From a virus, in the IMG/VR virus record IMGVR_UViG_3300044617_002308, positions 7,268-71,267 of that record: a stretch of DNA of 64,000 nt. One strand, written 5' to 3'. The notes below the pieces were generated by a model. The model was given only the letters and a program-made list of their open reading frames with translations, was not told the DNA's origin and made no database searches. Below are positions 260 to 36,777 of the stretch, piece after piece. The stretch's first letter is position 1; every line of letters starts with the position of its first letter. The translations under genes were made by a program, and so were the position numbers.

Positions 260-3200
260 GGTCAAATTGGCTTGCGGTTGGTTGAACATGAGTTCCGGCG
301 TGAGCGTGGAGGGTTGCTGGCGCAGGGACTTGGGCTTCGGGAACGGTCGGATGTTGACGCCCGTGGCGATCTTGAAGAGCGAAAGGAAGGGATCGCGCAC
401 GGCCACATTGTCGGGATCGGGGTAGGTGATGTAGGTGCGCGTTTCGCCGGACGGGAGTTTTTCATCGTAAACCCGCACGCTCTCCGGGCCAGCGCCCATG
501 GCTTGCAACCGGGCTAGATCGCCTGCGATGTTGCGGGTGGTCTGGCCTGCGTCGGAAACCTTCGCGGGGTTTACGCCCATGCCGAAAAGAAGTTCGCGCA
601 GATCAATGGGCGCACCGCTGGAAGAAACCGGCGTGGCGACTTGCGCGGAGAGGTTTGCCAGCGCGGCGTCTTTCTCGGCGGTGGTGAGTTTTTCGTTCGC
701 GCGGATTTTCTTCGCCTCGCGGGCCATGTAGCCGGCGCGGTCGAAATTGAGCGTGAGGCGGGCCGGGGTGATGGGATCGCCGGCGACGGGGAGGTTTTTG
801 CGCAGGCCGGGGACTTTGGCCATAATGCTTTCCAGCGGCCCCATCGTGAAGTCGAGGCTCTTGTTGCTCGTCGTGCGGCGCACCACCGGATCGGTCATGT
901 TGTTGATGTATTCGGTGAGGGCGCTGGGGTTGATCGGCGAACTGAGCGCCTCGAAAAACGCCTCGCTGGCCAAATTCACCGGGCTCTTCTTTGCATCAAT
1001 GCTGCCCACTTTGGCGATGCCCACCATGCGGCTCAGGATGCCGAGCGCGGTGAGGTCGGAAATGTAGGCTCCGGCATCGCGCAGGAAACCGGGCATGTCG
1101 CCCCGCACGGCGCGGCCCATGAGAAGACCTTCCTTCATCCAGGTCATGTTTTGGTAATACATCCAGTAGTCGTCGCCGCGATGGTTCGTGAGATCGTCGT
1201 TGATATTCACGCCCGCCATGCGAAGAGCAGTAGCCACCATGCGGCCAAGTTGGGTTTTGCGCCCGAGCGCGGAGAGGTTCATGCGGCTGCTGGTATCCTG
1301 ATCGCGGTCCTTGGCCTTGCCTTCGGCGTCGAAGCGGGAGCCGATGATCGGGTCTTCCTCGTCGTCGCCAGAGAGTAGGGCCGCGCCACCGTAGGCGATG
1401 GCGGCGAGCGTGAGCATGTTGGCCAGTCCGCGCGCGCGCTCCTGCTTGGTGGAGGAAGGCGAGAAGGTTTCAATCGCTCCATCGAGGCCCATGCGCTTCA
1501 TAAAGCGCACAAAGTTGTATGGCCACTTGATGAACCACAGGCCGTGTTCCTTGAGGAATTTTTTTCCTTTCTCTTCGGGCAGGCTCGCGGAGGGGTCCAT
1601 CCACGCCGGCACATTCGCGTAGTCCATGAAGTAAAGCCGCGCGGCGTCCATCACCTCGCGGTGGATCGCGGTGTTTTCGCGCACCTGCTTTTGAATCCAG
1701 TTGCGCATCCACTCGGAGCGCCCGCTCTTCACCTTGGCTTCGTTGGCGGCCACCTCGGCGCGGGCGCGGTAGGCCGCATAGGCGCTCTGCTGCTTCACCG
1801 CCGCATCGCCGCCGGAGTAGTGCACGGCGTAGAGGATGCTCGCGGAGATGCCACCTTGTTTGAAGGCGTTCACCAGGCCTTGCGCGGGGCCGCGCAGGAT
1901 GCCGTTGCGTTTGATGTCATCCACCATGTTGCCGTAGTCGGTGCCCGCATCGAGGCTGGAAAGCGCGGTGGTGTTGTCGAACAACTCGCGCGGGATGAGA
2001 TCGCCGATGCGCGATTGATTGAGCGTGTTCGGCGCGCGGTCGGTAATGAGGCCGCGTAGGAGGAACAGAGCCTCCATCGTATTCACTGCCGCGCCCTTGG
2101 AGTCCAGCACCATCAGGTGGGTGATGCCTGCAAACATCCGGTTCATGGCCTGCGTGAGCGTGAGAATTTGGTTGCCGATCCAGTTGATGCCTACGGAACC
2201 GGCGGCAAGTTTTCCGAGCTTCGCGCCGCGCAGGAAGAAATTGAGCGTGCGCAGGAGAATGCCTTCGGTCTGCGCGCGGGCCATGGAGAGCATGAGTTCG
2301 CGGTAAACATTTTTGTGAACCATCTGCTCGATGCCGTTGAGCCGCGCGGCGTCGCCCACCAACTTCATGAGTTGCACCTGATCCTTCGGGTTGAGCCCCT
2401 TTGAGAGGTGCGGGTAGGCTTTTTTGTCGAGCAGGCGGGCGGCTTCCACGGCCTTCACGATGCTGCTGAAGACATCCTCCAGCGCCACATAGTCGCCGAT
2501 GTTCTCGGCAGGCACATCGTCGCGCAGCACGACGGCTTTTTCGATGATGCCCTCGCGCATGCGCATACGGATTTTCTCGCGGTGGGCCTCCATCGCACGG
2601 GTGCTGAACCCATCGACAAGGTTCTTCACATTGCCGGCCTCGCGGAGCGCGCCGGTCTTGAAGCGGCGGCCAGGGGATTTGTAGATGCCCAGCAGGCGGG
2701 CGATCGTGGCGATGATCGAGCGCTGCGCGGCGATGTCGGGCGTGTAGCCCTCCACGCGCGGCACCTCGGGAAGAAGATCGCCGAAGGCATCCTTCAAATC
2801 CTGCGGCCACTCGTTCATGAAGGAGAGAAGCGCCTCGCGGTTGAACTCCACGCTCATCGTGCTGCCAAGGCCCACGGTGTAGGCATCCTTCAAGTCCGGC
2901 GTGATCCAGCGGTCGAGGATCGGGAGCGCCTCGGGGAAGTTCTGCCAGAATTCCTCGTAGATCGCCTGCTGCATTTCCACGCTGATCGGCTCCAGAAGAA
3001 CAAAGGCTTTTTCATCGGGCAGGAAGTCGCCCAGGCGGTAGGTGCGGCCATCGTATTGGAACCACTCGCCGTCGCGGAGCCGGAGCTTGCGGGCCTCCAC
3101 TTGGGAGATCGTGCCGGATCGGCGCTCGAATTCACGCCACTCGAAGCCGCCATCCACGCCCGTGCGCTGGGGTTGGAGATAGCTGGCTGTCGGGAGGAGC

Positions 3201-6200
3201 AGGCGCGTGGCTTCTTTCAGGCGAGTGCGGTTTTTGCTCCAAAATGCGGGATCGCCGAAAGCCTTTTGAAGTTCGCGGCGCAGGCCGTCCACCACGGCAT
3301 TCACGCCGATCTGGGCAAGTGCCTCCTCTTGCTGCGCGGCTTGCAGAATATTTTTCACGCCGGGGGCGAGGGCGTCGGCCACATCCAAGCGGCCACGGAA
3401 AAGGTTTTGGTAGCCGCGCCAAAGTTCGTAAGGCATGGCCTCGCGGATTTCGCCGGCGACTTTGCGCACGCTGCCCGCGGGCTTCTCCTCCGCCGCGCGC
3501 AGGACATTGTTCCAGTTCTCGATCGAGTCCAGGCTCGCCTCGATGCGCTTCTCCATCGGAGGAAGCGCGGGGCGGCGTTTGGCCCCTAATACAGCCCCGG
3601 GCTGTCTCCCCTTGGGAGTTGCTGGAACCACTCCGGCAGTTCGGCCAGCGCCTCCTCGTCCTCCAGAAGGTCGTCCAGTTCCGTCCCGATCCCGTCCGTC
3701 CGCAGGTAGCTCTCCTGCGTCATTGGCTTTTTCCGATGTTCCAAGATTATTTTCGCCGCTCCTGGCAACCTTTGCCCAGTCCGGTCGGCCCACTCCTGAA
3801 CCATCCGCAATTGCTTCTGACGCAGTTCTTCCGCGTCGCCCTTGGAGGGTGTCGCGGTTGCTCCATTCGTCGGTGAGTCGGAATATGAGATCATGGGCTT
3901 CTTTGGTGGTGATAATGCCTTGTTCGTGCTTTTTCCAGATCGCTCGGACCTTGTTGACATTCGCTTTCTGGCTCTTGAACTTCGCTGGGAAAAGTAAACG
4001 GACAGACTCCCATGTGATACTCTGGACTTCACGCGGAAGCAAGTTGAATTCCTTGGCAACGATGCGGTAGGCTTCCGCAAAGGCGGGGTAGAGTCCGCTA
4101 ATGCCGAGGTTTGCGCTGCCAGCGGCTCCGCCTTGGCCGAAATTCTGGCTGACCTCCGGGCTGTTGCCGGAGAGGGCTTGCCACAGGATGGCGGCGATGG
4201 CGTGGGTATCCATGGTGACATGGCCGTCCGGGTTCGCGGGGTCCACAATGTTGTTGTAGAACGATCGCACCTTGTGCTGAACGCCGAGTTCGGCGCTGAT
4301 CGTCTGTATCTCCGCCTCGGCTGGAGCCGAAAGGATGTTGATCGCTTTTTCAATCGTGTTGTAGCTGCCCCATGCGATGGAGCGTTGCTCGCCTTTTTCT
4401 GTGAGCATCGGGTTGCCGAAGCGGCCATCGGGTGAGACGACGGGGAAGGAGGGTGAGTCGTAAACCTCGCTCCACATGCGGATGAAGCGGGCTTGGAATT
4501 CCAGCGGAAGGTCTTTGAGTTTTTTTCCTTTGAGTTCTTCAATATCCGCCTTGGCTTCCTCAAGTTTCTCCCGCGCCTTGGCGTTGTCCCAATTCTCCCA
4601 ATCCACGATATCGCCCGCGTCGTTGGTAACCGGCTTCGCGCCTTTTTCGTAGAGGATGTTTCCTTGGGCGTCGCGCTTGTAGTCGTCTAGCTTCTTGTCC
4701 CATTGCGGCTGGGGCTCGCCGCTGCGGCGGATGTATTGGGCCGCCATGGCATCGTCGAAGATGGTGTCCTGGTGGTTGCGCCAGACATTCATCATGCGCT
4801 CGGCCAGGGCCACATTCATGAACCAATCCTTCTGCGGGCTGAACACGGCCAGCACGGCGGCGGAGCGGTTGAGCGTGGTGCCGAAGCGGGTGGCGAAATC
4901 CTGCGCGATGATGTTTGCGCCATCATACCAAAGGCGGGCGATGTCGCGGAGGTCGGCGGGGAAAAGATCGATGAGGCGCTCCAGATTGTCCACGGCCATC
5001 TCGGTGAGGGCTTGGTAAACGCTTTCGGCCATCGAAGTCGGGAACCGGCGCTCGTTGGCGAGGATGGCCTTCACCTCGTTGTCGAAGGCTTTCTTGGCGA
5101 CATCGACCTCCGTCTTGGCTTTCTCGGCGGCGGTGCGGGCGGCGTTGATGCGTGAGACCAGCCCGCGCACCTTGCGGGAGTTCTCATCCGGCTTGGCTTC
5201 GATGGCGGCATCCACGGCGGCCATCTTCACCTTCGCCTTGCGCACGCCCTGCTGGCGGGCGAGTTCGACCTGGAGCGCCTCGCGGGCTTTCTTGTGCTCG
5301 TCGGTCTTAATCTCCAATCGGGCCTGCGCCCTCACAAGCGGAGCGCGCACCTTGCGGACAAGCGCGGCGGCCTCGGGAAGGCGGCCAGCCACCAGCGGGT
5401 AGTCGGCCAGGAGCATGGCGTTCTTGCGGAACAGCGCGGGGTCTTGGCGCATGGCGTCGAGGCCCACCAGCATCGAGGCGTCCGTGCCGGAGCCGTCTGG
5501 ATTTTTGCCGGTCGGGTTGCGTGTGCCAACCGCCGTGCCTGCGACCACTTTGCCTTTTGTCTCGGCAAGGATACGCGCGGGGCGCGATTTGGCGAAGAGC
5601 GCGCCCTGTTCAATCACAGGGGCTGCTGGCGCGGGATCAAGCAAGCCTTCGCGTTGCAACTCGTTGACAATTTCGCCCGAGATCGGTTGGTTGCCTTGCA
5701 CTTGCCGCGCTTGTTGTGCGATCTGCTGCGCTTCTTTTTGCTCCACGAACCGGCCTGTGGTGGTGACAAAGCCGAAGTTCTGCGTGGGCGGGAATTCTCC
5801 GCCATCCAAGTCATACTTCGTCTCCTCCATGAGTTCTGCGTGCGTTTTGGCGGGTGAGCTTAGAACAGTGCCGTCCTTGTCGATCACGGCGGTGGCGGCT
5901 ATGCGCTCGGGCATGGCTTGTGTAGCCGGGGCAGGCTGTGCAAACAAATCCCCCACATCTTTTGTGTTGATGGCTGGCGCTGTGCTGGCTTCAACACTCG
6001 CAATCTCTCGGCTGAAGTTTTCCAGAACCGCGCTTGGGTCGTCTTCTTGGAAGAGCGCATCGGTAATCGCTTGTTCTCGCGTCTTTCCAGCAGCCACGCC
6101 ATTGAGAATCTCGCTTCTTACTTTGCTGGCGTCTGCCGTGACCATGGTGTCCGGGGCGCTTTTTGCAACAACCGCGAGCAATGGGTTGATGTTGACATCA

Positions 6201-9200
6201 GCCGCCGCTCCGAGGAAATGAATGCGCGGCGGTTTTGCTTCGGATAAAAACTCCGCAAGTTTTTCCCTGCTGACAGCCTGCGCGTTTGAAGGAATGCCAA
6301 CAATAAATTTGGATGGATCAATTGTTATTCCTTTGGAGTTGGAGTTCAGTATCTCAAGAATTTTATTGTAAGCCTGCGCAAGAGATAGTTCGCCAAGCGG
6401 AATAGGAATAATCGGAGTAAGTGCCTGCGCTTCTGTTTCGACTGCGATCCTGTCTTTGTATTTGTCTGTCAAAAGCAAGGATGCCTTTTGGTTGCCGATA
6501 ATGTCCGGCATGACCATAAGGGGCGAAGGATAGTCTTTTTCTACGGCGTTTTCTTTTTGAATCGCATCTAAAATAGAATCGTATTTTTCAAAAATTTTAT
6601 CAAAACTCAATGGCTTCAAGGTATTCCCCTTTTCAGCCTCCTTTTGAGACTTGATGAAGTGACTGAATGCCCCGGAATCGATAAAGACTTGCGCGTCGAG
6701 ATTCACCACCGCGTTGGCCAGCGCCTCTATTGCATTTTTAGACAGAAGGCCGACATCAAATCCGACTCCATAGTTCTGCATCCCGCCGCGAACAAATGTG
6801 GATGTAGCGAGGTCGCTTATTCCGCTCATGCCCGAGGCAAAGCGAACCATGTCTTTTTTGATTTTTTCTATCGGCGCATCGATTTCCCTTGTAAAACCAA
6901 ACTCTGTGGCTGTCGGCGAAGGAGCCGGGGATGATGCATCTCCAAACAAATCCTCCACATCCTCGCGCCCGCTGCGGCGGAAGGCTTCTTCGCGGGCTTG
7001 GGCGTCCACCACCGTGTCGGGCTTCACCGGCGCGGGCGGGAGCGTTTCGCCGACTAGGTTGAACGGCGTCTCGTCGCCGAAGAGTTCGCCCGTGGTGTCT
7101 GATGAGCGGCGGGGCTTGGCGAAGAGCGGAGTCTCTTGTCTTCTTTGGGCGTATTCCAACACGGGGCCAAAAACATTGCGCACCAACGGTGGAGGAACTC
7201 CATTTCCAATAATTGTGAAAGCAACATCTTGGTCGGCGGGCAAAGGATAGTCATCAGGAATACCAGTCATTCTGGCTTTTGCTCTTGGTGTCAGCCTTTT
7301 AACTATACCGCCTGGAAGAAGTATTCGATCTACGGTATTCGGAGACGCCTTAAATGTAAATGCGGGCTGGGTAGCTCTGGCAAAAGCGACCTGCTTGAAA
7401 AGAGTCGTGCCGCTCACCAACACAGGCTCGCTCACATTTAGCGGATCGGGAAAAGCGCTGCTGAATCCGTTGCCCTCTCTCCAAAGGTATTCTTGACCGG
7501 GTTTTGGTTTGTTCTCAATTACATCATCAGGCAAGTCGTCAATCAAATCAGCAATCGTTTCATACCATCCCGGCCCTTTGACCGGCGTAGGATCGGGGAG
7601 AAAAGCGGCTCCGCGAACAGCGCGGAGCAGATAGCGCCTGCGGGCGGTGGGTGCGCCGTAGTCCGCGGCGTTGTAGATGCCTTCGTCAAAGGTGTAGCCC
7701 TCGCGCTCTAGAGCCTCGCGGATGATTCCGGCAGAAATGGTCTTGCGGTATTCCCAGACATTTTCAATCGTGACCACTTGTGGCTGGATTTCCTTAATGT
7801 GGCGGGCAACCGCGCGGGCGGACTCCACATCGAGGTCTTTCTCGCCGCCGCCCTTCGCTGCGCTGTTCATAAGCGAGGAATTTTTGCAGACCGGCGAGGC
7901 GTGGTAGTGGAACGCGCCCTTGTGTTTCTCCAGCGAAACCTCGCGGATGTCGGAGACCTGGACATGATCGCCGTGCGCGGCGCGGTAGGCTTGGGCGATG
8001 GAGGCGTCGTATTCGACGGCGGCGACGGGATTCACCAAACCGCGAAGGCCGATTTCCACAAGCCCGCCACCAGAAAAGGTGGTGATGCCGCTCGGGAGTT
8101 TGGCGAGATTCGGAACTAAGTCGCTTGAGCCTCGCGCTGGCTTTGCGCCGAGAATTTGCGGTCCAGAGCTTGGTCGATTGCGCTCTGCATCCATGCGGCT
8201 TCGTGCCGCGAAAATTCCTGCTCGGTTGCGAAATCTTTCCTTGAGTAATTGCGAACCGGACCAGTTGCGCTCAAGATTGGCGATTCGGTAGATTTCACTG
8301 CCTGTAAGGGCTTCGATGGGGAATCCAAGTTCACGCTGGAATGTTTCGCTTGTGAGGCCCGCGCGGTCAAGGAGTTTTTGGGTGTCCTGCGGGCGCGGTT
8401 TGAGGTAGTTCTGGGACTGGCTGTCGGCCAGGGCGGCGGCGGCGACAACCTCGGCTCCGTTGGAGACCAGGTGGTCGATCAAAGCCGTGAGCGTGTTGCC
8501 GCTGGTGTAAACATCGTCCACCACCACATACTGCGCCGAGGGATCGACCTCGCCCTCGAAGGTCTGGATGTTGCCCATGCGCTGGGCCGCCGAGACTCCC
8601 GTGTTCGACATTCCGCCGCTCTTGACGATGCCGGTATCCACGCGGCTATTGGGGATGCGGCGTTGGAGGCTGCCAGCCAGCGCGGCGGGTAAGGCGTTGT
8701 GGAACACGCCGGGATCGGAATGCCGGACGGGGACGAAGATCACATCTTGGTCAGCATTGAGTCTGGCTTTGACTTCATCAACCATTTTCTGGGTGATGAG
8801 GGACTCGCTGATATCCACGGCGGCCACGGGGTCTCCGCCTTTCTTGGCGGCTTGGTAGGCGGGGCTGACCATGGCCAGATCGGGGGCGCGGCCTGCGATG
8901 ACGGGCGCGGGGTCAAGCTCTACGAGTTGCTCGCCTGGCTTCAGCCCGGTGGTGCGGAGTTTCGCCACTTTCGTGGACCGGGCGACGATATCAAGTGTGT
9001 CGGGGTAGTTCCCAGGAAGGGAACTGGCCGGAGCAGCGTTGCGGCGCGCCTTGGCGAACAGTGCCACGCCTTGGTCGGTCTCGCGGGTATCAAGCGTGTC
9101 GAACAGGATATCGTAGGCTTGGCGGATGCCTCCTTCCATTTCCTGCGGGAGCGGGTAGGCTTCGCCGCTGGGGTCGATGTTGGCGAGGTAGTCGTTGGTG

Positions 9201-12200: not shown

Positions 12201-15200
12201 GCGTTGAATTGCCGGCTGCCTTGGTCGGCGTAGCGGATGCCGGGGATGCCTGCGGCGAGGAGGGCTTCGGAGGCTTTCTTTGAAGCGTCAACGCCATCGC
12301 GTGAAAACTCCGCATCGGGAAATGTGGCGCGAAGTGTGCTGTATAATGCCCCGCCAACCTGCTCCCCACTTTTCCCAAAAATTGCGTCCTGCCACAACCA
12401 ATTGCCGGAGATTGATTGCAATGCTGCCTGCACCTTTGGACTTTGGTCGGAGAGCGGCTTGTCCCAATCGAGCATGTCAGCATCATCCACATCGAGTTCG
12501 ACGGCGTAGAGGTTGCCGGGTTGAGTTGTTTCTCTGCCTACGCGCGGGATAACCGCATCATAAGCAGCGATGATTCTTTCTTTGTTCGCGTAGTTATCAT
12601 CGTATTTGGTTGCATTGTCGCGTTGCTGAATAAGCCACGCTTTTAGATCGCTGGTTCCATTTGCGGGAAATGCGCCGATGTCGTTAAATACCAACCGGAC
12701 ATTTTCATCTGAACTTGATTTGAGTTTTTTGGCCAGCGTTGGAGTGATCGTTTGCCCATCAAGTGTATTCTTCTTCCGTAAATCTCCAGCCAGCCTTCTG
12801 CGGTATTCCTCCGCAGCAGCCCGCGCCTCCGCAAAATAAAGCCCCCAGCCATAAGCCTGCGCGCCCTCGCCGGTTCCGATCTTGTCGAGGCGGAAGCGGT
12901 CCACCTTGTGCGGCGTGCCGTGGTGGGCTTTTTTGAGGAACAGGATGCCGGGTTCGGTGGTAACCTCGGCGTTGGCCAAACGCACGCGGGGCTTTGCGGC
13001 TACGGCGCGTTCGCCCATGCCGTCATCGAAGTCCGTGGTGGTGCCATACATCGGGCGGTTTTCGGTGAACCGCGCATCCACCAAGTCGAGCACGTCGCTG
13101 GGCGTGAAGGTGTCGAACCCATGCCCGCGCAGGCTTTGGGCGAGCCGATCCAAGTCGGGCGCGTTTTTGCGGAAGATGCGGGAAACAAAAATGCCCTTGC
13201 CGCCGTAGGCTCCCTTGCCCATGGCTTTGGCGCTTTCAAAGAGCGTGGTGAGTTCGCCGCGGTGGCTTTCGGCGCTTTCAGAAGTGGGCGAGGGCAGTCC
13301 GCCCGCCATTTGGATGGCGTCCAAAAGCTCGAAGCCGCTGGCGCTGGCGTCTTCCATGGCTTTGTCGAGGTTGCCCGCCTCGGCTCGCAGATCGTCGAGA
13401 TACTCGCGCTGCATGGCCTCCAACTCGGCCTGCTCAGCGTCGGTTTTCATTTGCTCGGGCGTCTTGCCCATGCGCACGCGCAGGGAGCCATCCGGGCGCG
13501 GCGTGGCTTTGAGCGCGCCGAGTTGGATCATTTGCGCCCAGGAGAGCGGAGCGGAGTCGCGGTTGGTGAACCCGGCGGGGCTGGCGATGCCGGCCTTCAA
13601 TGTCAAGTCGGCGGGGGCGATGTCGCGGGTGCCATCCTGCAAGACGTCATGCACGGCGTCGATGAAGGCGGCCTGCGAGCGCAGGAGCGGGCCTTCCGGC
13701 AAGCGGCTCATGTTCATGAGGAGTGTGCCGGGGTGGAGATTCGCCATGCCGAGGCGCTTGGCCACAGCCACAGCCTGCGTGACAAGGCGGTCGAGACTCT
13801 CGGGCGTGGACTCGCCGCGCTCGCGGGCCTCGCGGAAGTCGCGCATCTGGCTCACAAAAAGCTGGTAGAATTTCGGGACGAGCTTGGCGTCTTTGTCGCT
13901 CAACTCCGGCATGCCCTCGTCCTCGGCGGCTGGATCGGCCTCCTGCTCCATCTCGGCGGCGCGGGCTTCCAGTTCGGCCTCCTTCGCGTCGAATTCGGCG
14001 GCAACGCGATTGGCCTCGGTGCGGGCCTGCGCATCGTCCGTGATCGGAATCTGCGCGGGCGTGCCTCCCTGCGGGCCGCGAACGAGGTAAAGCCGGCCAC
14101 TCTTGGTGACGCGCGGGTGGAGCGGGATGTCGGACGCGGGTTTTTCCACCGGGCCGAGTTGGGCATCGATCTCCTCCACACGCTCATTGCGGGTGAGGCG
14201 CGGGGCGATGCCCGCCTTGGCCATGAGGTCGTAGCCTTTCTGGTTGATCACGCGCTGCCCGCGGTAGATGTCCACCATGCCGCGCTGGCGCAGATCGGCG
14301 ACATCGGCCTCGCTGGCGGTGTTGCCCGCCACGGCGGCGAGTTTTTCCAAAACCGGAGCCTGCTTGGCGGCGCGCTCGGCGGCGTAGGCATCGAGCGCTT
14401 CCTGCGTGAAGAGGTAGTTGTTGCCGCGCTTCTCGGCGGGAATCACGGCGGCTTTCACTAGGCGCAGGAGTTCCTTCGGCGTGACGCCAAGGGTTTTCGC
14501 GGCTTGGGCCATTTTGATCGTGGGCGCGGCGGCTGGCTCTGTAGGCTCCGGCGGCAATGGCGGCGGGGTCGCCTCGTCTGTCACGACTTCCTGCTTCGGT
14601 GTCACGACTTCTTCCGGCGGGAGCGGGGGCGGTGTGGCTTCGACGCTCTGCACCGGCTGCACGGGCAAAGTGGTAGCAGGAGCGGGAGTCGAACCCGCGT
14701 CTCCAGGATATGAGCCTGGCAACTTAACCTCTCGTCCATCCTGCGGTGTGGAAAATTCTTGGGAAACTGGTGCAACGGCTGTCGGCGCGGCCACACGCTC
14801 GAAGAGATCGCGCACGGCTTGGGGCTTTTTGTTAAATTCTTGGATGCCTTTTTTGAACGCCGCCTTCACCTGATCAAGGTTCGTGACGAGGATCGCGGTA
14901 TCGGCTAGGCCTGAGAGGATCAGGAACGGCTGGGCCGTCATCACGCCGGAGACGAGTTTGAGCCCGATGCCCACGGTGGCGAAGATCACCTGTGGCTTGC
15001 TGAGTTTTCCGCCTTGGGCAGCGCGGTAGAGCTTGTAGGTGCCAAGGAACGAGAGTCCGCCGCCGAAAACCTCGCCGATGTTGGTCGAGAGCCAGTCGGT
15101 GGCCACGCGGTCGCTCACTGCGCCGCTCTGCACCAAAAGCTCCACGCCGGGGAGCGGCAGGCCGCTGCGGGTGAGGCTGTCTTTGAAAAGTTGGATGATG

Positions 15201-34583: not shown

Positions 34584-34823
34584 TTACTTTTTCTTCCGCT
34601 TCTTGCTTTTCTTCGGGCGCTGGGGCGGATCGTCGGGACCGAAATCATCGTAGCTCCAGATCGGCTTTCCGGTGTCTTCAAGGAACGGAAAATGCCGTGT
34701 GCAGGATCGCACCCGCTGCCGCATCTCGGCCACCGTCTTCGGCCTCTTCTGCGGGTCCATCAAATCCCACAGAAAATCCCGCGTCTTGCGCAGGGCCCCG
34801 TATTGCTCAAAGCGCAGGCTCAT
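34584..34823 (-). CDS. Conserved small phage protein
   Basis: MSLRFEQYGALRKTRDFLWDLMDPQKRPKT...CTRHFP; ATG 34823. Confidence 0.65.
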   Translation of the reverse strand: MSLRFEQYGALRKTRDFLWDLMDPQKRPKTVAEMRQRVRSCTRHFPFLEDTGKPIWSYDDFGPDDPPQRPKKSKKRKKK

Positions 34824-34833
34824 AGGGAAAGAA

Positions 34834-34978
34834 TTCGGGCGGGCGGGACGCTGCCCCCGCTGGTGCCGGTTTCCGTCGCGGCCCCGGCGTTGCCGCTCGC
34901 TGGGTGAGAGCATTGGTGTTCGCGGGTTTTCGGCCTCCGCGTGGCCCTGTGTCTGCGGCTTCCACAGCGCCGCCCGAA
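34834..34978 (-). ncRNA. Structured tRNA-like element C (~145 nt)
   Basis: Closing stem TTCGGGCGG/CCGCCCGAA; D-like hairpin CTGTG-GAAGCCGCAGA-CACAG; internal stems; T-like hairpin GCGGG-GGCAGCGT-CCCGC stacked directly on the closing stem. Confidence 0.6.
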
Positions 34979-34980
34979 AA

Positions 34981-35118
34981 TGGATTCCCCGCCGCTGGAG
35001 TCCCCCGAGAATTCCCGAAGGTGGTGATGCCCTCCTTGCGCTTGATGCTTTTCCGGCCCGACCACCATACGGTAGCCCTTTTCAGAGGCATCATCTCGTC
35101 CGGCAAAGGAACGGGGAA
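34981..35118 (-). ncRNA. Structured element B (~138 nt) ending in a 7-bp stem plus T-CCA
   Basis: Closing stem TTCCCCG/CGGGGAA followed by TCCA; internal stems CGAGA/TCTCG, TGATGCC/GGCATCA and GGCTACC/GGTGGTC. Confidence 0.55.
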
Positions 35119-35123
35119 AACTC

Positions 35124-35264
35124 TCGCAGGAACGGGCGCGCGCTCCCTTTTCAGGCGTGGGCGTTCGGGAGTCCAGGGCCATCGAGGGCCGCCCAGTCCC
35201 ACCAGTCGATAGTGTGCGTCGTTGCCGAGAGGCCCGCCTGGTCGTGTCATCCACCTGCCTGCGA
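35124..35264 (-). ncRNA. Structured tRNA-like element A (~141 nt)
   Basis: Closing stem TCGCAGG/CCTGCGA; GTG-GATGA-CAC hairpin; stems CAGGCG/CGCCTG and GGGCG/CGCCC; T-like hairpin before the 3' strand. Confidence 0.55.
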
Positions 35265-35280
35265 AATTCTGGAAAATGTT

Positions 35281-35553
35281 TCACCATAAGTTCTTACAAG
35301 CCCAGTAGCCGGGCTTTGTCTTGTCGGTTTTCTCCGCGCAATTGTGGCGGGCATGGAAATTCTTCCGGCGCTTCTCGTTCTTGTGCTTCGTGAAATCACT
35401 CATCGAGGCATCGCCGAAATGCACCACCCGCACTTTCCCGCTCTCTGGATCGCGCACATACACCGTTCGTTTCTTTCCTGCCGGCGTGACTCCCGCGATC
35501 TTGCGCGGTTTGTTGAGCGTGACGGCCTTTCCTTGGTGTTCGGCGACTGGCAT
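35281..35553 (-). CDS. Small basic phage protein, DUF5754-like
   Basis: KKRTVYVRDP...VHFGD...KHKNEKRRKNFHARH...PGYWACKNLW; family name recalled from memory. Confidence 0.7.
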   Translation of the reverse strand: MPVAEHQGKAVTLNKPRKIAGVTPAGKKRTVYVRDPESGKVRVVHFGDASMSDFTKHKNEKRRKNFHARHNCAEKTDKTKPGYWACKNLW

Positions 35554-35557
35554 GGCG

Positions 35558-36187
35558 TTACCCCTCCCCTCCCGTGGTGAGGAGTTTGTTTTCCTCAAGC
35601 TCCAGGCTCGCGCGGCGGGCTTTGCTCTCTTCAATCCTGCGCCGAAGCTCGTCCAGCGGGATGAAGTCGGTTTTGACTTCATGCTCGATCTTGTCGCCGT
35701 AGCGCTTCGCGTTCCATTTTCCGATGAGCCGGATGCGCGTATCAATCCGCACCCGCTTGTCCGCGGGGTCCATGAGCGGGTCGTCGGCGATTTCGATGCA
35801 CTGATCGGCCAAAACGTGCGTTCCGTGCTCCCTCGCGCGCGCGGACAATTGCGCGAATTCCCCGATTTTCGACTCCCATTCAAACACGGTGGTGATGCAC
35901 GGCATGTGGTTCATCATGCAAATGCTCTTGAGCGTTTGGCCCTGCGCGAGCCGCCAGCAAATTTCCTCGGCGATTTCGCGCGAGTAGGTGCTCGGAGCGC
36001 CCGGGCCTTTCTTTGGCGGCGGAGTGGCCGCGTCGTCGGCGAGCAGGCTTTTCTTTGGCGCGCCGTTGTCGTTTTGGGAAAAATCCCCCGCCTTTTTTGG
36101 CGTGCCGGAGCCGTCCTCCGGGGCCGTGCTTTTTTTGCGGCCACGCGGTTTTTCCACGCTCTCGGTGCTGGTGTTTTCCGTTGTCAT
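35558..36187 (-). CDS. terS: Terminase small subunit (Sf6 gp1-like)
   Basis: GAPSTYSREIAEEICWRLAQGQTLKSIC...MPCITTVFEW...ARE...LADQCIEIAD...RIDTR...KRYGDK. Confidence 0.85.
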   Translation of the reverse strand: MTTENTSTESVEKPRGRKKSTAPEDGSGTPKKAGDFSQNDNGAPKKSLLADDAATPPPKKGPGAPSTYSREIAEEICWRLAQGQTLKSICMMNHMPCITTVFEWESKIGEFAQLSARAREHGTHVLADQCIEIADDPLMDPADKRVRIDTRIRLIGKWNAKRYGDKIEHEVKTDFIPLDELRRRIEESKARRASLELEENKLLTTGGEG

Positions 36188-36777
36188 TTCGTGGGTTGTT
36201 TTTTGGAGTGTAAACTTTGTCGATTGTCTCGGCAATTTTTTTCTTGACGCCTTTTCGGAATCGTCGTTAAAATGGGCTCACTGGTGTGAGCGGAGCAGGA
36301 AGTTTGTGTGGTGTTGCTCTTTTGTTTTTTGGGTTTCGCGTCGATGTGCCTTCGGATGAAACCCGGCACCAATCCTGACTCTTCGGGCGATTCGACAAAC
36401 ACGGGCAGATGTCCGATTCGGATGGTTTCGTTGAGATATTCCACGCAGTCGGCGAATGTGTGGCAGCGTTTCCAGCAATGCTTTTCGACGCCGGCTTTTT
36501 TCGCTTCCTCGTTGTCGATCGTCTCGAAAATTTCGCGCGGGTGCTGGGTGGTTGTCTCGTCGAATTTCGCGCGCTCCAGGTGGAGTGTCACGGTGGTTTT
36601 GGTTCCGTGCACGGTTCGCGTGAAATACACGGCGTGGTGGCTTTTGAGCGCATCGGCGGCGGCGGCGAAAAGCCACTGGCTTTCGTTCGCGCGGTAGGGA
36701 CCGGCGAAGGGTTCGAGGTTCGGGGGGATGTTCTTTTTGTCGAGGATTCGGAGGTGGAGCAGCGGGTTGAGTGTCAT
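36184..36777 (-). CDS. Hypothetical protein
   Basis: ATG 36777 with ATGA overlap. Confidence 0.55.
   Translation of the reverse strand: MTLNPLLHLRILDKKNIPPNLEPFAGPYRANESQWLFAAAADALKSHHAVYFTRTVHGTKTTVTLHLERAKFDETTTQHPREIFETIDNEEAKKAGVEKHCWKRCHTFADCVEYLNETIRIGHLPVFVESPEESGLVPGFIRRHIDAKPKKQKSNTTQTSCSAHTSEPILTTIPKRRQEKNCRDNRQSLHSKKQPTK
36217..36235 (-). promoter_or_regulatory. 19-bp box upstream of terS
   Basis: + strand ttgtcgattgtctcggcaa, identical to the copy upstream of the MCP gene. Confidence 0.75.

Follow-up and report, generated by a model that had tools for sequence, protein, structure and literature searches.

Within a 64,000-nucleotide (nt) window of viral DNA (positions 7,268 to 71,267 of IMG/VR record IMGVR_UViG_3300044617_002308; the coordinates below are those of the window), three consecutive units in a gap beside packaging genes are very probably conserved structured RNA modules, and not tRNA-like, judging from comparisons with other phages. 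The gap is a 457-nt spacer without a convincing gene (34824-35280), which separates a DUF5754 gene from an open reading frame (ORF) of 79 amino acids (aa) in phage DNA of 59% G+C content; all of the convincing genes near the array are on the minus strand. Our preferred explanation, to which we give a probability of roughly 45% when it is taken as a whole, is that the spacer encodes a noncoding RNA of ~430 nt made of three unrelated and independently folding modules (units C, B, and A), probably trans-acting binders that would serve as counterdefense decoys or in a role linked to packaging. In the best reading of the comparisons, these are three new modular RNA families that appear to be exchanged between freshwater phages and that here are located within the packaging operon. 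Unit C, and it alone of the three, has a real link to packaging genes.

The initial annotation of this DNA had described the gap as tiled by three units, each closed by a terminal stem of 7 to 9 bp. This tiling (~135 to 145 nt per unit) was confirmed from the sequence, and the array as first delimited (34834-35264) starts and stops exactly at the outer ends of units A and C. On the minus strand, which is also that of the terminase small-subunit gene (terS), the DUF5754 gene, and the flanking genes, the units follow one another head to tail in the order C, B, and A, with linkers of 5 and 6 nt and a total of ~430 nt (Table 1). Their closing stems comprise 7 bp in unit C (UCGCAGG/CCUGCGA), 7 bp including one U-G pair in unit B (UCCCCGU/GCGGGGA), and 9 bp in unit A (UUCGGGCGG/CCGCCCGAA). 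The units are not sequence repeats of one another: Tandem Repeats Finder returned 0 rows, and the words that they have in common measure only 10 to 11 nt. A common layout had been attributed to units A and C; the two are not homologous, and the comparative model of unit C matched once in the window and once in the whole 71,267-bp genome.

Comparative evidence for three RNA folds

Stems of this kind are cheap in sequences of 59 to 67% G+C content. Judged by comparison with other phages, and not by folding energy, the structure is beyond chance. Homologs were collected with a scan of IMG/VR based on DUF5754 (at least 80 loci) and with pattern scans for the individual units. The first of these yielded L001, a locus with the whole array at 71% identity. 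A pattern drawn from the conserved core of unit C led to L082 and L084 in IMG/VR, with L113 added later, and to 10 stretches in metagenomes. Three of the 10 were confirmed with the model (L086, L087, and the truncated L091), six had no match to it, and L085 (18.1 bits) was judged to be a chance match and left out of all counts. Seven distinct unit C sequences are thus available (window, L001, L002, L082, L086, L087, and L113). A 23-nt pattern for the core of unit B matched seven IMG/VR stretches (L001's contig, L113, L114, L115, L116, L117, and L118), three of which (L114, L115, and L118) are near-identical contigs, and pattern scans for unit A found it in the window, L001, and L113 only. These counts are lower bounds (i.e., at least seven, six, and three distinct sequences for units C, B, and A, respectively, from seven, about five, and three phage lineages). 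Run on 83 sources, the unit C model recovered the known copies only; L003 to L080 share DUF5754 and have no unit C. A blastn search against 50,697 GenBank phage records gave no match.

Along the array, blocks of identical sequence longer than 30 nt alternate with variable stretches rich in indels. Every closing stem is kept in the homologs with compensatory changes, as in P1 of unit C (CG:CG in the window, GA:UC in L001, and GG:CC in L002) and P1 of unit A (G-C in the window and A-U in L001), and the internal helices covary too. For unit C, a structure based on four sequences had 93.0% of its cells paired, compared with 34 to 43% when the partners were slid, and 13 of its pairs had changed on both sides, compared with 0 to 2. 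The covariation test proposed with the initial annotation was positive for the full set as well: in a model-fitted alignment of the seven sequences, with the pseudoknot included, 93.3% of the cells were paired (32 to 44% when slid), and 20 of the 35 pairs showed double changes (1 to 3 when slid). The three new rows (L086, L087, and L113) keep the helices and contribute new pair types, and variants of the pseudoknot include a U-A pair in L087 and a G-U pair in L001. Eight G-U cells were counted in unit C, as opposed to two A-C cells; this excess points to the minus strand as the strand that folds. Unit C also has long invariant unpaired stretches, and in these and in the pseudoknot it resembles RNAs with a specific tertiary fold or partner. 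A possible micro-ORF of 23 codons in unit C of L086 was rejected by eye, its ATG being missing in the window and in L001 and its frame in L002 stopping after 4 codons.

Besides the closing stem, unit A has the hairpin GGC-CUGUG/CACAG-GCC and another four or five short helices. In the three rows from which the structure had been derived, its 37 pairs were 97.3% paired (33 to 40% when slid), and five of them were compensatory (0 to 1 when slid), which extends the positive covariation test to this unit. It is the weakest supported of the three units. A 3-nt deletion in L113 sits in the loop of the CUGUG/CACAG hairpin.

Unit B is composed of P1, a 5' block of ~25 nt (CCCCGUUCCUNUGCCGGACGA) in which only one position varies among the six sequences, a hairpin of variable sequence (Pa), a junction rich in A, and the P2 domain. 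P1, Pa, and P2 are complementary in all six distinct sequences, which represent about five lineages. At the same place, Pa is built from four unrelated sequences (UGAUGC/GCAUCA, GAGAGCC/GGCUCGC, GGUUC/GAACU, and UGCAACCA/UGGUUGCA), and the window and L117 have a common 3' subdomain with compensatory changes. RNAalifold, applied to a MAFFT alignment, reported 20 pairs, 3 of them compensatory; because this alignment misplaces the variable hairpins, unit B has been tested less formally than unit C, and its alignment is partly manual. Its many G-U pairs are possible in the minus sense only. We also observed that the 10-nt word CCCTTTTCAG (CUGAAAAGGG in the RNA sense) occurs at 35076-35085 and again at 35145-35154, i.e., in the window-specific insert of unit B and in the invariant junction of unit C, and that CCCGUUCCU is present in both units with a spacing of 27 nt.

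Strain variants were taken from the contigs of four freshwater-labeled DNA runs belonging to four studies; the contigs of two runs (X3 and X5) show differences. At least six of the differences listed are inside the gap, and, of 57 further differences over the whole stretch, up to three may be there as well. Four of them (34890, 34898, 34913, and 34919) fall on unpaired positions of unit A, and two others (35074 and 35156) each convert a G-U pair to a Watson-Crick pair; no pair is broken by the listed gap variants.

The spacer had been called noncoding, and this was borne out. In the window, three of the six frames cross the gap without a stop, and the long ORFs encode 147 and 155 aa on the minus strand and 205 aa on the plus strand. 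However, no frame is open in all three full-length homologs (window, L001, and L113), L113 has stops in all six, and, of the 12 indels that separate the window from L001, 11 have a length not divisible by three. The four gap ORFs matched 0 Pfam and 0 PHROG families, and tblastn revealed no relative of the 147-aa ORF in IMG/VR (nine pattern matches, none confirmed); protein-level conservation of the overlapping ORFs was thus found neither in these databases nor in the frames of L001 and L113.

Known RNA families were not recognized in the gap either. Rfam 15 gave no match there at gathering scores (its families include pRNA, GOLLD, ROOL, twister, hammerhead, and riboswitches), and, at E values of up to 10 over 34600-35500, the best scores were those of WT1-AS_2 (14 bits) and RAGATH-8 (11.3 bits), far under the cutoffs. 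ARAGORN found nothing in the gap, the sole tRNA of the window being a tRNA-Met at 14671-14745; as had been anticipated, tRNA finders and Rfam miss the units. The novelty of the units consists in their absence from Rfam 15 and in their not having been met in a literature search. Three specific candidates were discarded. A retron msr-msd RNA was excluded because a search of the 71,267-bp genome, with a completeness rating of 100%, found no reverse transcriptase (no RVT_1 match). The absence of tandem direct repeats excluded a ToxI-like type III antitoxin array, and the neighbors of the array are terS, DUF5754, and the 79-aa ORF. The abiF RNA motif (RF03085, a 37-nt hairpin model) is absent from the window.

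Separate inheritance and genomic contexts of the modules

As their distribution among phages indicates, the modules are inherited separately. The full C-B-A block is found in the window, L001, and L113, whereas unit C occurs without B or A in four other lineages (L002, L082, L086, and L087) and unit B occurs without C in three lineages, alone or joined to other RNA elements. The order is terS-DUF5754-array in the window and terS-array-DUF5754 in L113 and in L001 (DUF5754 at 1741-2007), from which it follows that the array and the DUF5754 gene have swapped places. In both arrangements, the homology of the array begins at the stop codon of the preceding gene (TGAAAC...).

Unit C adjoins a terminase gene in three of four independent context families. 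It is downstream of terS in the window and in L001. In L002 it follows a terS-like ORF (phrog_1206, E value of 1.3e-6), and a convergent gene ends at the 3' end of the unit. In L082 it lies between the terminase large-subunit gene (terL; phrog_15, E value of 2.1e-60) and a 90-aa ORF followed by the portal gene (phrog_21), and in L087 it is followed by the same downstream gene. In the fourth context, L086 (a contig of 46% G+C content), it follows a DnaB helicase gene far from the terminase. By our own rough estimate, which assumes dozens of intergenic sites per genome, adjacency to terminase genes by chance is unlikely; two of the four context families were first reached via DUF5754, and the link is biased to that extent. 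Unit B lies between a 161-aa ORF and a head-protease-like gene with the major head protein in L114; in L117 it has small ORFs and a tRNA nearby. In all six loci with listed ORFs (window, L001, L002, L082, L086, and L114), the unit and its upstream gene share a strand.

Some of these loci have features of their own. The convergent ORF of L002 (165 aa; 5480-5974, minus strand) consists of tandem repeats of ~54 nt, with a repeated peptide of the KNTF(F/Y)SDG type, and matched no PHROG family. In L082 (~1780-2110, minus strand) and L087, a repeated motif, GTGGTTAAA(N)..TTTGACAC, is followed by a hairpin; it flanks unit C on both sides, recurs after the 90-aa gene, and may serve this phage group as a promoter or a regulatory element of another kind.

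Downstream of unit B, L114 and L116 have ~170 nt of conserved noncoding sequence (L114 ~5830-6003, minus strand; L116 ~4859-5025, plus strand) and then an abiF RNA motif in the same sense (Table 1). The differences between L114 and L116 in the intervening stretch look compensatory by eye, and it may be a fourth RNA module. An Abi_2 gene is absent from all four records of this phage group, two of which are 95% and 100% complete, and the motif may be an orphan RNA of the antitoxin type that the phage uses against AbiF. According to one report, the abiF-motif RNA (RCd22) binds and neutralizes the AbiF toxin, like type III antitoxins (bioRxiv 10.1101/2025.04.15.648962). Evasion of such systems through RNA mimicry by phages is described for the pseudo-ToxI of phage PhiTE (PMC3475682), and Racr RNA anti-CRISPRs are described as phage RNA mimics (PMC10651486). 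By association, the joining of the abiF motif to unit B suggests that noncoding cassettes of this kind can serve counterdefense. A hairpin with a U-run, the hairpin being the abiF motif itself, that would end the L114 RNA was seen by eye; it was below the threshold and was not counted.

Possible functions and alternative explanations

Scans revealed no promoter or terminator belonging to the array itself, and it would therefore be transcribed as part of the packaging or late operon. In our preferred explanation, the modules would then act as autonomous binding RNAs, probably in trans, the favored function being that of a molecular mimic or decoy directed at host defense proteins. Of the roles proposed in the initial annotation, decoys, protein sponges, and packaging-related RNAs are still candidates. 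These parts differ in strength. That the modules are trans-acting binder RNAs has about an even chance of being correct, that they are counterdefense decoys is doubtful, and a packaging-linked role for unit C, which may also be considered, has smaller odds still.

Several points weigh against this explanation. Its main support comes from few sequences (seven, six, and three for units C, B, and A). The unit C alignment (A7) had been fitted to the model, whose structure had itself been derived with four of the seven rows; for unit A, the three rows used in the derivation were also those counted, and two of them have an overall identity of 85%. Folding energies show no signal relative to shuffles: the whole gap has minimum free energy (MFE) z-scores of +1.14 on the plus strand and +0.51 on the minus strand, and those of single units range from -1.12 to +0.68. 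Of the helices in the covariation model of unit C, the MFE fold recovers P1 only. Scans found no promoter or terminator around the array, around unit B in L114, or around unit C in L086. A bacterial copy of unit C was not found in 185,579 species genomes (18 pattern stretches, 0 convincing; L101, at 18.1 bits, was dropped as chance). The fusion with the abiF motif, on which the decoy idea draws, concerns one phage group and unit B only and says nothing directly about the window. Finally, placement in a late operon is unusual for counterdefense genes.

A different possibility, which we consider rather unlikely, is that the units are cis-acting elements of the packaging or late transcript, such as processing sites, ribozymes that cut the mRNA, stabilizers of 3' ends, or put-like modifiers of RNA polymerase. 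Several features would fit: the units are always in the sense of the neighboring genes, the scans revealed no promoter or terminator of their own, and the closing stems join the 5' and 3' ends with linkers of only 5 to 6 nt. Many self-cleaving ribozymes have such a closing-stem architecture with paired ends, and the compact pseudoknotted core of unit C, its invariant unpaired bases, and its link to terminase genes would be compatible with an element of this kind. On the other hand, the genes downstream of unit C all differ (the 79-aa ORF, DUF5754, the 90-aa ORF before the portal gene, and the convergent gene of L002), and therefore no single regulated gene emerges; in L002, moreover, unit C is followed by a convergent gene whose end coincides with the 3' end of the unit. 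No known ribozyme family was matched at E values of up to 10.

Equally speculative is a bolder form of the preferred explanation, in which the units found new RNA classes as shuffled cassettes of freshwater phages. In one version, unit C would be an RNA of the terminase or packaging motor, an analog of the phi29 pRNA in phages with terS and terL, and the GGGA/UCCC pairing could link molecules into a ring. In the other version, the cassette would carry counterdefense decoys coexpressed with late proteins that abortive-infection systems sense, the orphan abiF motif being a recognizable example. The phi29 pRNA is a structured RNA associated with the DNA-packaging machinery of its phage. The likeness to it consists in the adjacency of unit C to the terminase in three of four context families and in a 4-bp pairing of the loop type that could in principle be intermolecular. 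In contrast, there is no match in sequence or structure, the phages considered here have terS and terL, unlike phi29, and L086 has unit C beside DnaB instead.

Other known systems offer partial parallels. GOLLD and ROOL are described as large ornate RNAs of phages and prophages (bioRxiv 10.1101/2024.12.08.627333); as described there, they too are multidomain, structured, phage-borne noncoding RNAs defined by covariation and carried as accessory cargo, whereas the window array is unmatched in Rfam, is shorter (~430 nt), and has modules that also occur separately. The RNA antitoxins and phage mimics, as presented in the reports cited above, are likewise small structured phage RNAs that bind and neutralize a host defense protein, and in L114 and L116 the fusion partner of unit B is a true abiF motif with no accompanying abiF gene. 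However, the window lacks this motif, its units are not repeats of one unit, and no bacterial original of unit C emerged from the species genomes. A prediction of structured RNAs in IMG/VR lists 8,495 motifs of 29 to 151 nt with covariation in intergenic regions of viral contigs, some of them near terminase genes (PMC10690425). Units A to C may already be among these motifs; the available account of that set describes no tandem modular array.

Few phage noncoding RNAs have complex conserved folds, and most of the known examples (pRNA, GOLLD, and ROOL) proved to be structurally or mechanistically unusual. The array offers three concrete new RNA families to model and search for, and it suggests that phages exchange RNA modules like accessory protein genes. 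If a module were indeed a decoy, a ribozyme, or a packaging RNA, the mechanism would be new for tailed phages that do not belong to the phi29 group; in the packaging-RNA or decoy-cassette form, it would add an RNA-based layer to phage biology.

It is very unlikely that the conserved element acts at the DNA level, as a pac or cos packaging signal, an origin, or an initiation signal of folded single-stranded DNA. Packaging signals usually lie beside terminase genes, and the array adjoins terS (unit C adjoins terL in L082) and contains conserved blocks; single-stranded DNA would likewise show compensatory changes. A duplex site for protein binding, however, would not account for compensatory changes in seven helices or the bias toward G-U over A-C, and for these reasons a duplex packaging site is improbable. 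Further, unit C of L086 follows DnaB far from the terminase, unit B of L114 and L116 is joined to the abiF motif, which acts as RNA, and iterated repeats are absent.

The initial annotation had read the units as tRNA mimics, processed by RNase P and CCA addition and serving as decoys for anticodon nucleases, and we now regard this as most improbable. The size of the units, the closing stems of 7 to 9 bp, the U-CCA that follows the closing stem of unit B, and the tRNA-Met elsewhere in the window had favored it. A precedent is the tRNA cluster of phage T4, which encodes small stable RNAs. Like these, the units are ~140 nt long, have paired ends, and are packed head to tail with only short linkers between them, and the phage has a tRNA gene as well; they lack, however, a cloverleaf, a T-loop, an anticodon arm, and a conserved CCA. 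Neither ARAGORN nor the Rfam tRNA model (RF00005) finds anything in 34600-35500 at E values of up to 10. For unit B, the 7-bp stem and the U-CCA (34984-34981) are indeed present in the window, whereas the CCA is absent from the five other sequences (L001, L113, L114, L116, and L117; four lineages). In unit C, the GUGGA...GACAC segment had been taken for a hairpin in the position of a D arm. It is not a hairpin in the fold supported by covariation, in which CAGGUG forms the 5' strand of the long-range helix P2 and GAUGACA is a junction. The 3' hairpin had been likened to a T arm; P6 has a loop of 4 nt and stands 3 nt from the closing stem P1, and it is therefore not one. The body of unit C consists of P2 to P5 and the pseudoknot, with no 7-nt T-loop and no anticodon arm, and units A and C have no common fold.

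A missed protein gene (the 147- or 155-aa minus-strand ORF or the 205-aa plus-strand ORF) or a spacer without function is scarcely credible, given that frames as open as those in the window are expected at this G+C content, that these frames have stops in L001 and L113 and frame-shifting indels between conserved blocks, that they have no family or relative, and that the conservation across phages of 46 to 59% G+C content contradicts a lack of function.

Neighboring genes and further observations on the locus

TABLE 1 Coordinates of the RNA units, their helices, and associated features (window coordinates unless a locus is named)
Feature	Coordinates	Strand	Basis or remark
terS (terminase small subunit)	35558..36235	-	phrog_1482, E 1.4e-30
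DUF5754 family gene, 90 aa, upstream of array	35281..35553	-	Pfam PF19058, E 1e-10; phrog_7595, E 9.1e-14
Unit C, 141 nt, first (5'-most) in RNA sense	35124..35264	-	
Unit C P1	35264-35258 with 35130-35124	-	Comparative model
Unit C P2	35257-35252 with 35157-35152	-	Comparative model
Unit C P3	35242-35239 with 35204-35201	-	Comparative model; variable insert inside
Unit C pseudoknot, 4 bp	GGGA 35200-35197 with UCCC 35170-35167	-	Comparative model
Unit C P4	35194-35191 with 35162-35159	-	Comparative model
Unit C P5 hairpin	35190-35186 with 35181-35177	-	Comparative model
Unit C P6 hairpin	35147-35143 with 35138-35134	-	Comparative model
Linker C-B, 5 nt, GAGUU	35119..35123	-	Read from sequence
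Unit B, 134 nt	34985..35118	-	
Linker B-A, 6 nt, UCCAUU	34979..34984	-	Includes the nonconserved U-CCA
Unit A, 145 nt	34834..34978	-	
79-aa ORF, downstream of array	34584..34823	-	GC3 (third-codon-position G+C) pattern; ATG at 34823, 10 nt past unit A
abiF RNA motif, L114	5793-5829	-	RF03085, 43 bits (cutoff 37); phage head-gene operon
abiF RNA motif, L116	5026-5062	+	RF03085, 43 bits; phage head-gene operon

The 79-aa ORF has a homolog in L001 that is 66% identical. It matched no family in Pfam or PHROG, and a scan of IMG/VR with the protein gave 562 pattern matches, none of which was confirmed. The ORF can be extended upstream by 30 codons into unit A, to an ATG at 34913 (34584-34913, minus strand); the in-frame ATG at 34823 coincides with the start of the L001 homolog and is the more probable start. 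Among the first 80 loci, terS, DUF5754, and the 79-aa gene occur together in L001 only.

No RNA run was found among the 24 sequencing runs listed for the array. In L086, a TTGATT-16-TACACT arrangement upstream of unit C and a GGAGG..CCUCC-CUUUCU arrangement downstream of it were seen by eye; both were below the threshold and were not counted. In the high-depth variant of X5, 45 of 335 letters differ over DUF5754 and terS (35365-35699), compared with 15 of 630 over the array and its edges (34765-35394), and this contrast indicates a probable mosaic or recombination boundary near 35365-35394.

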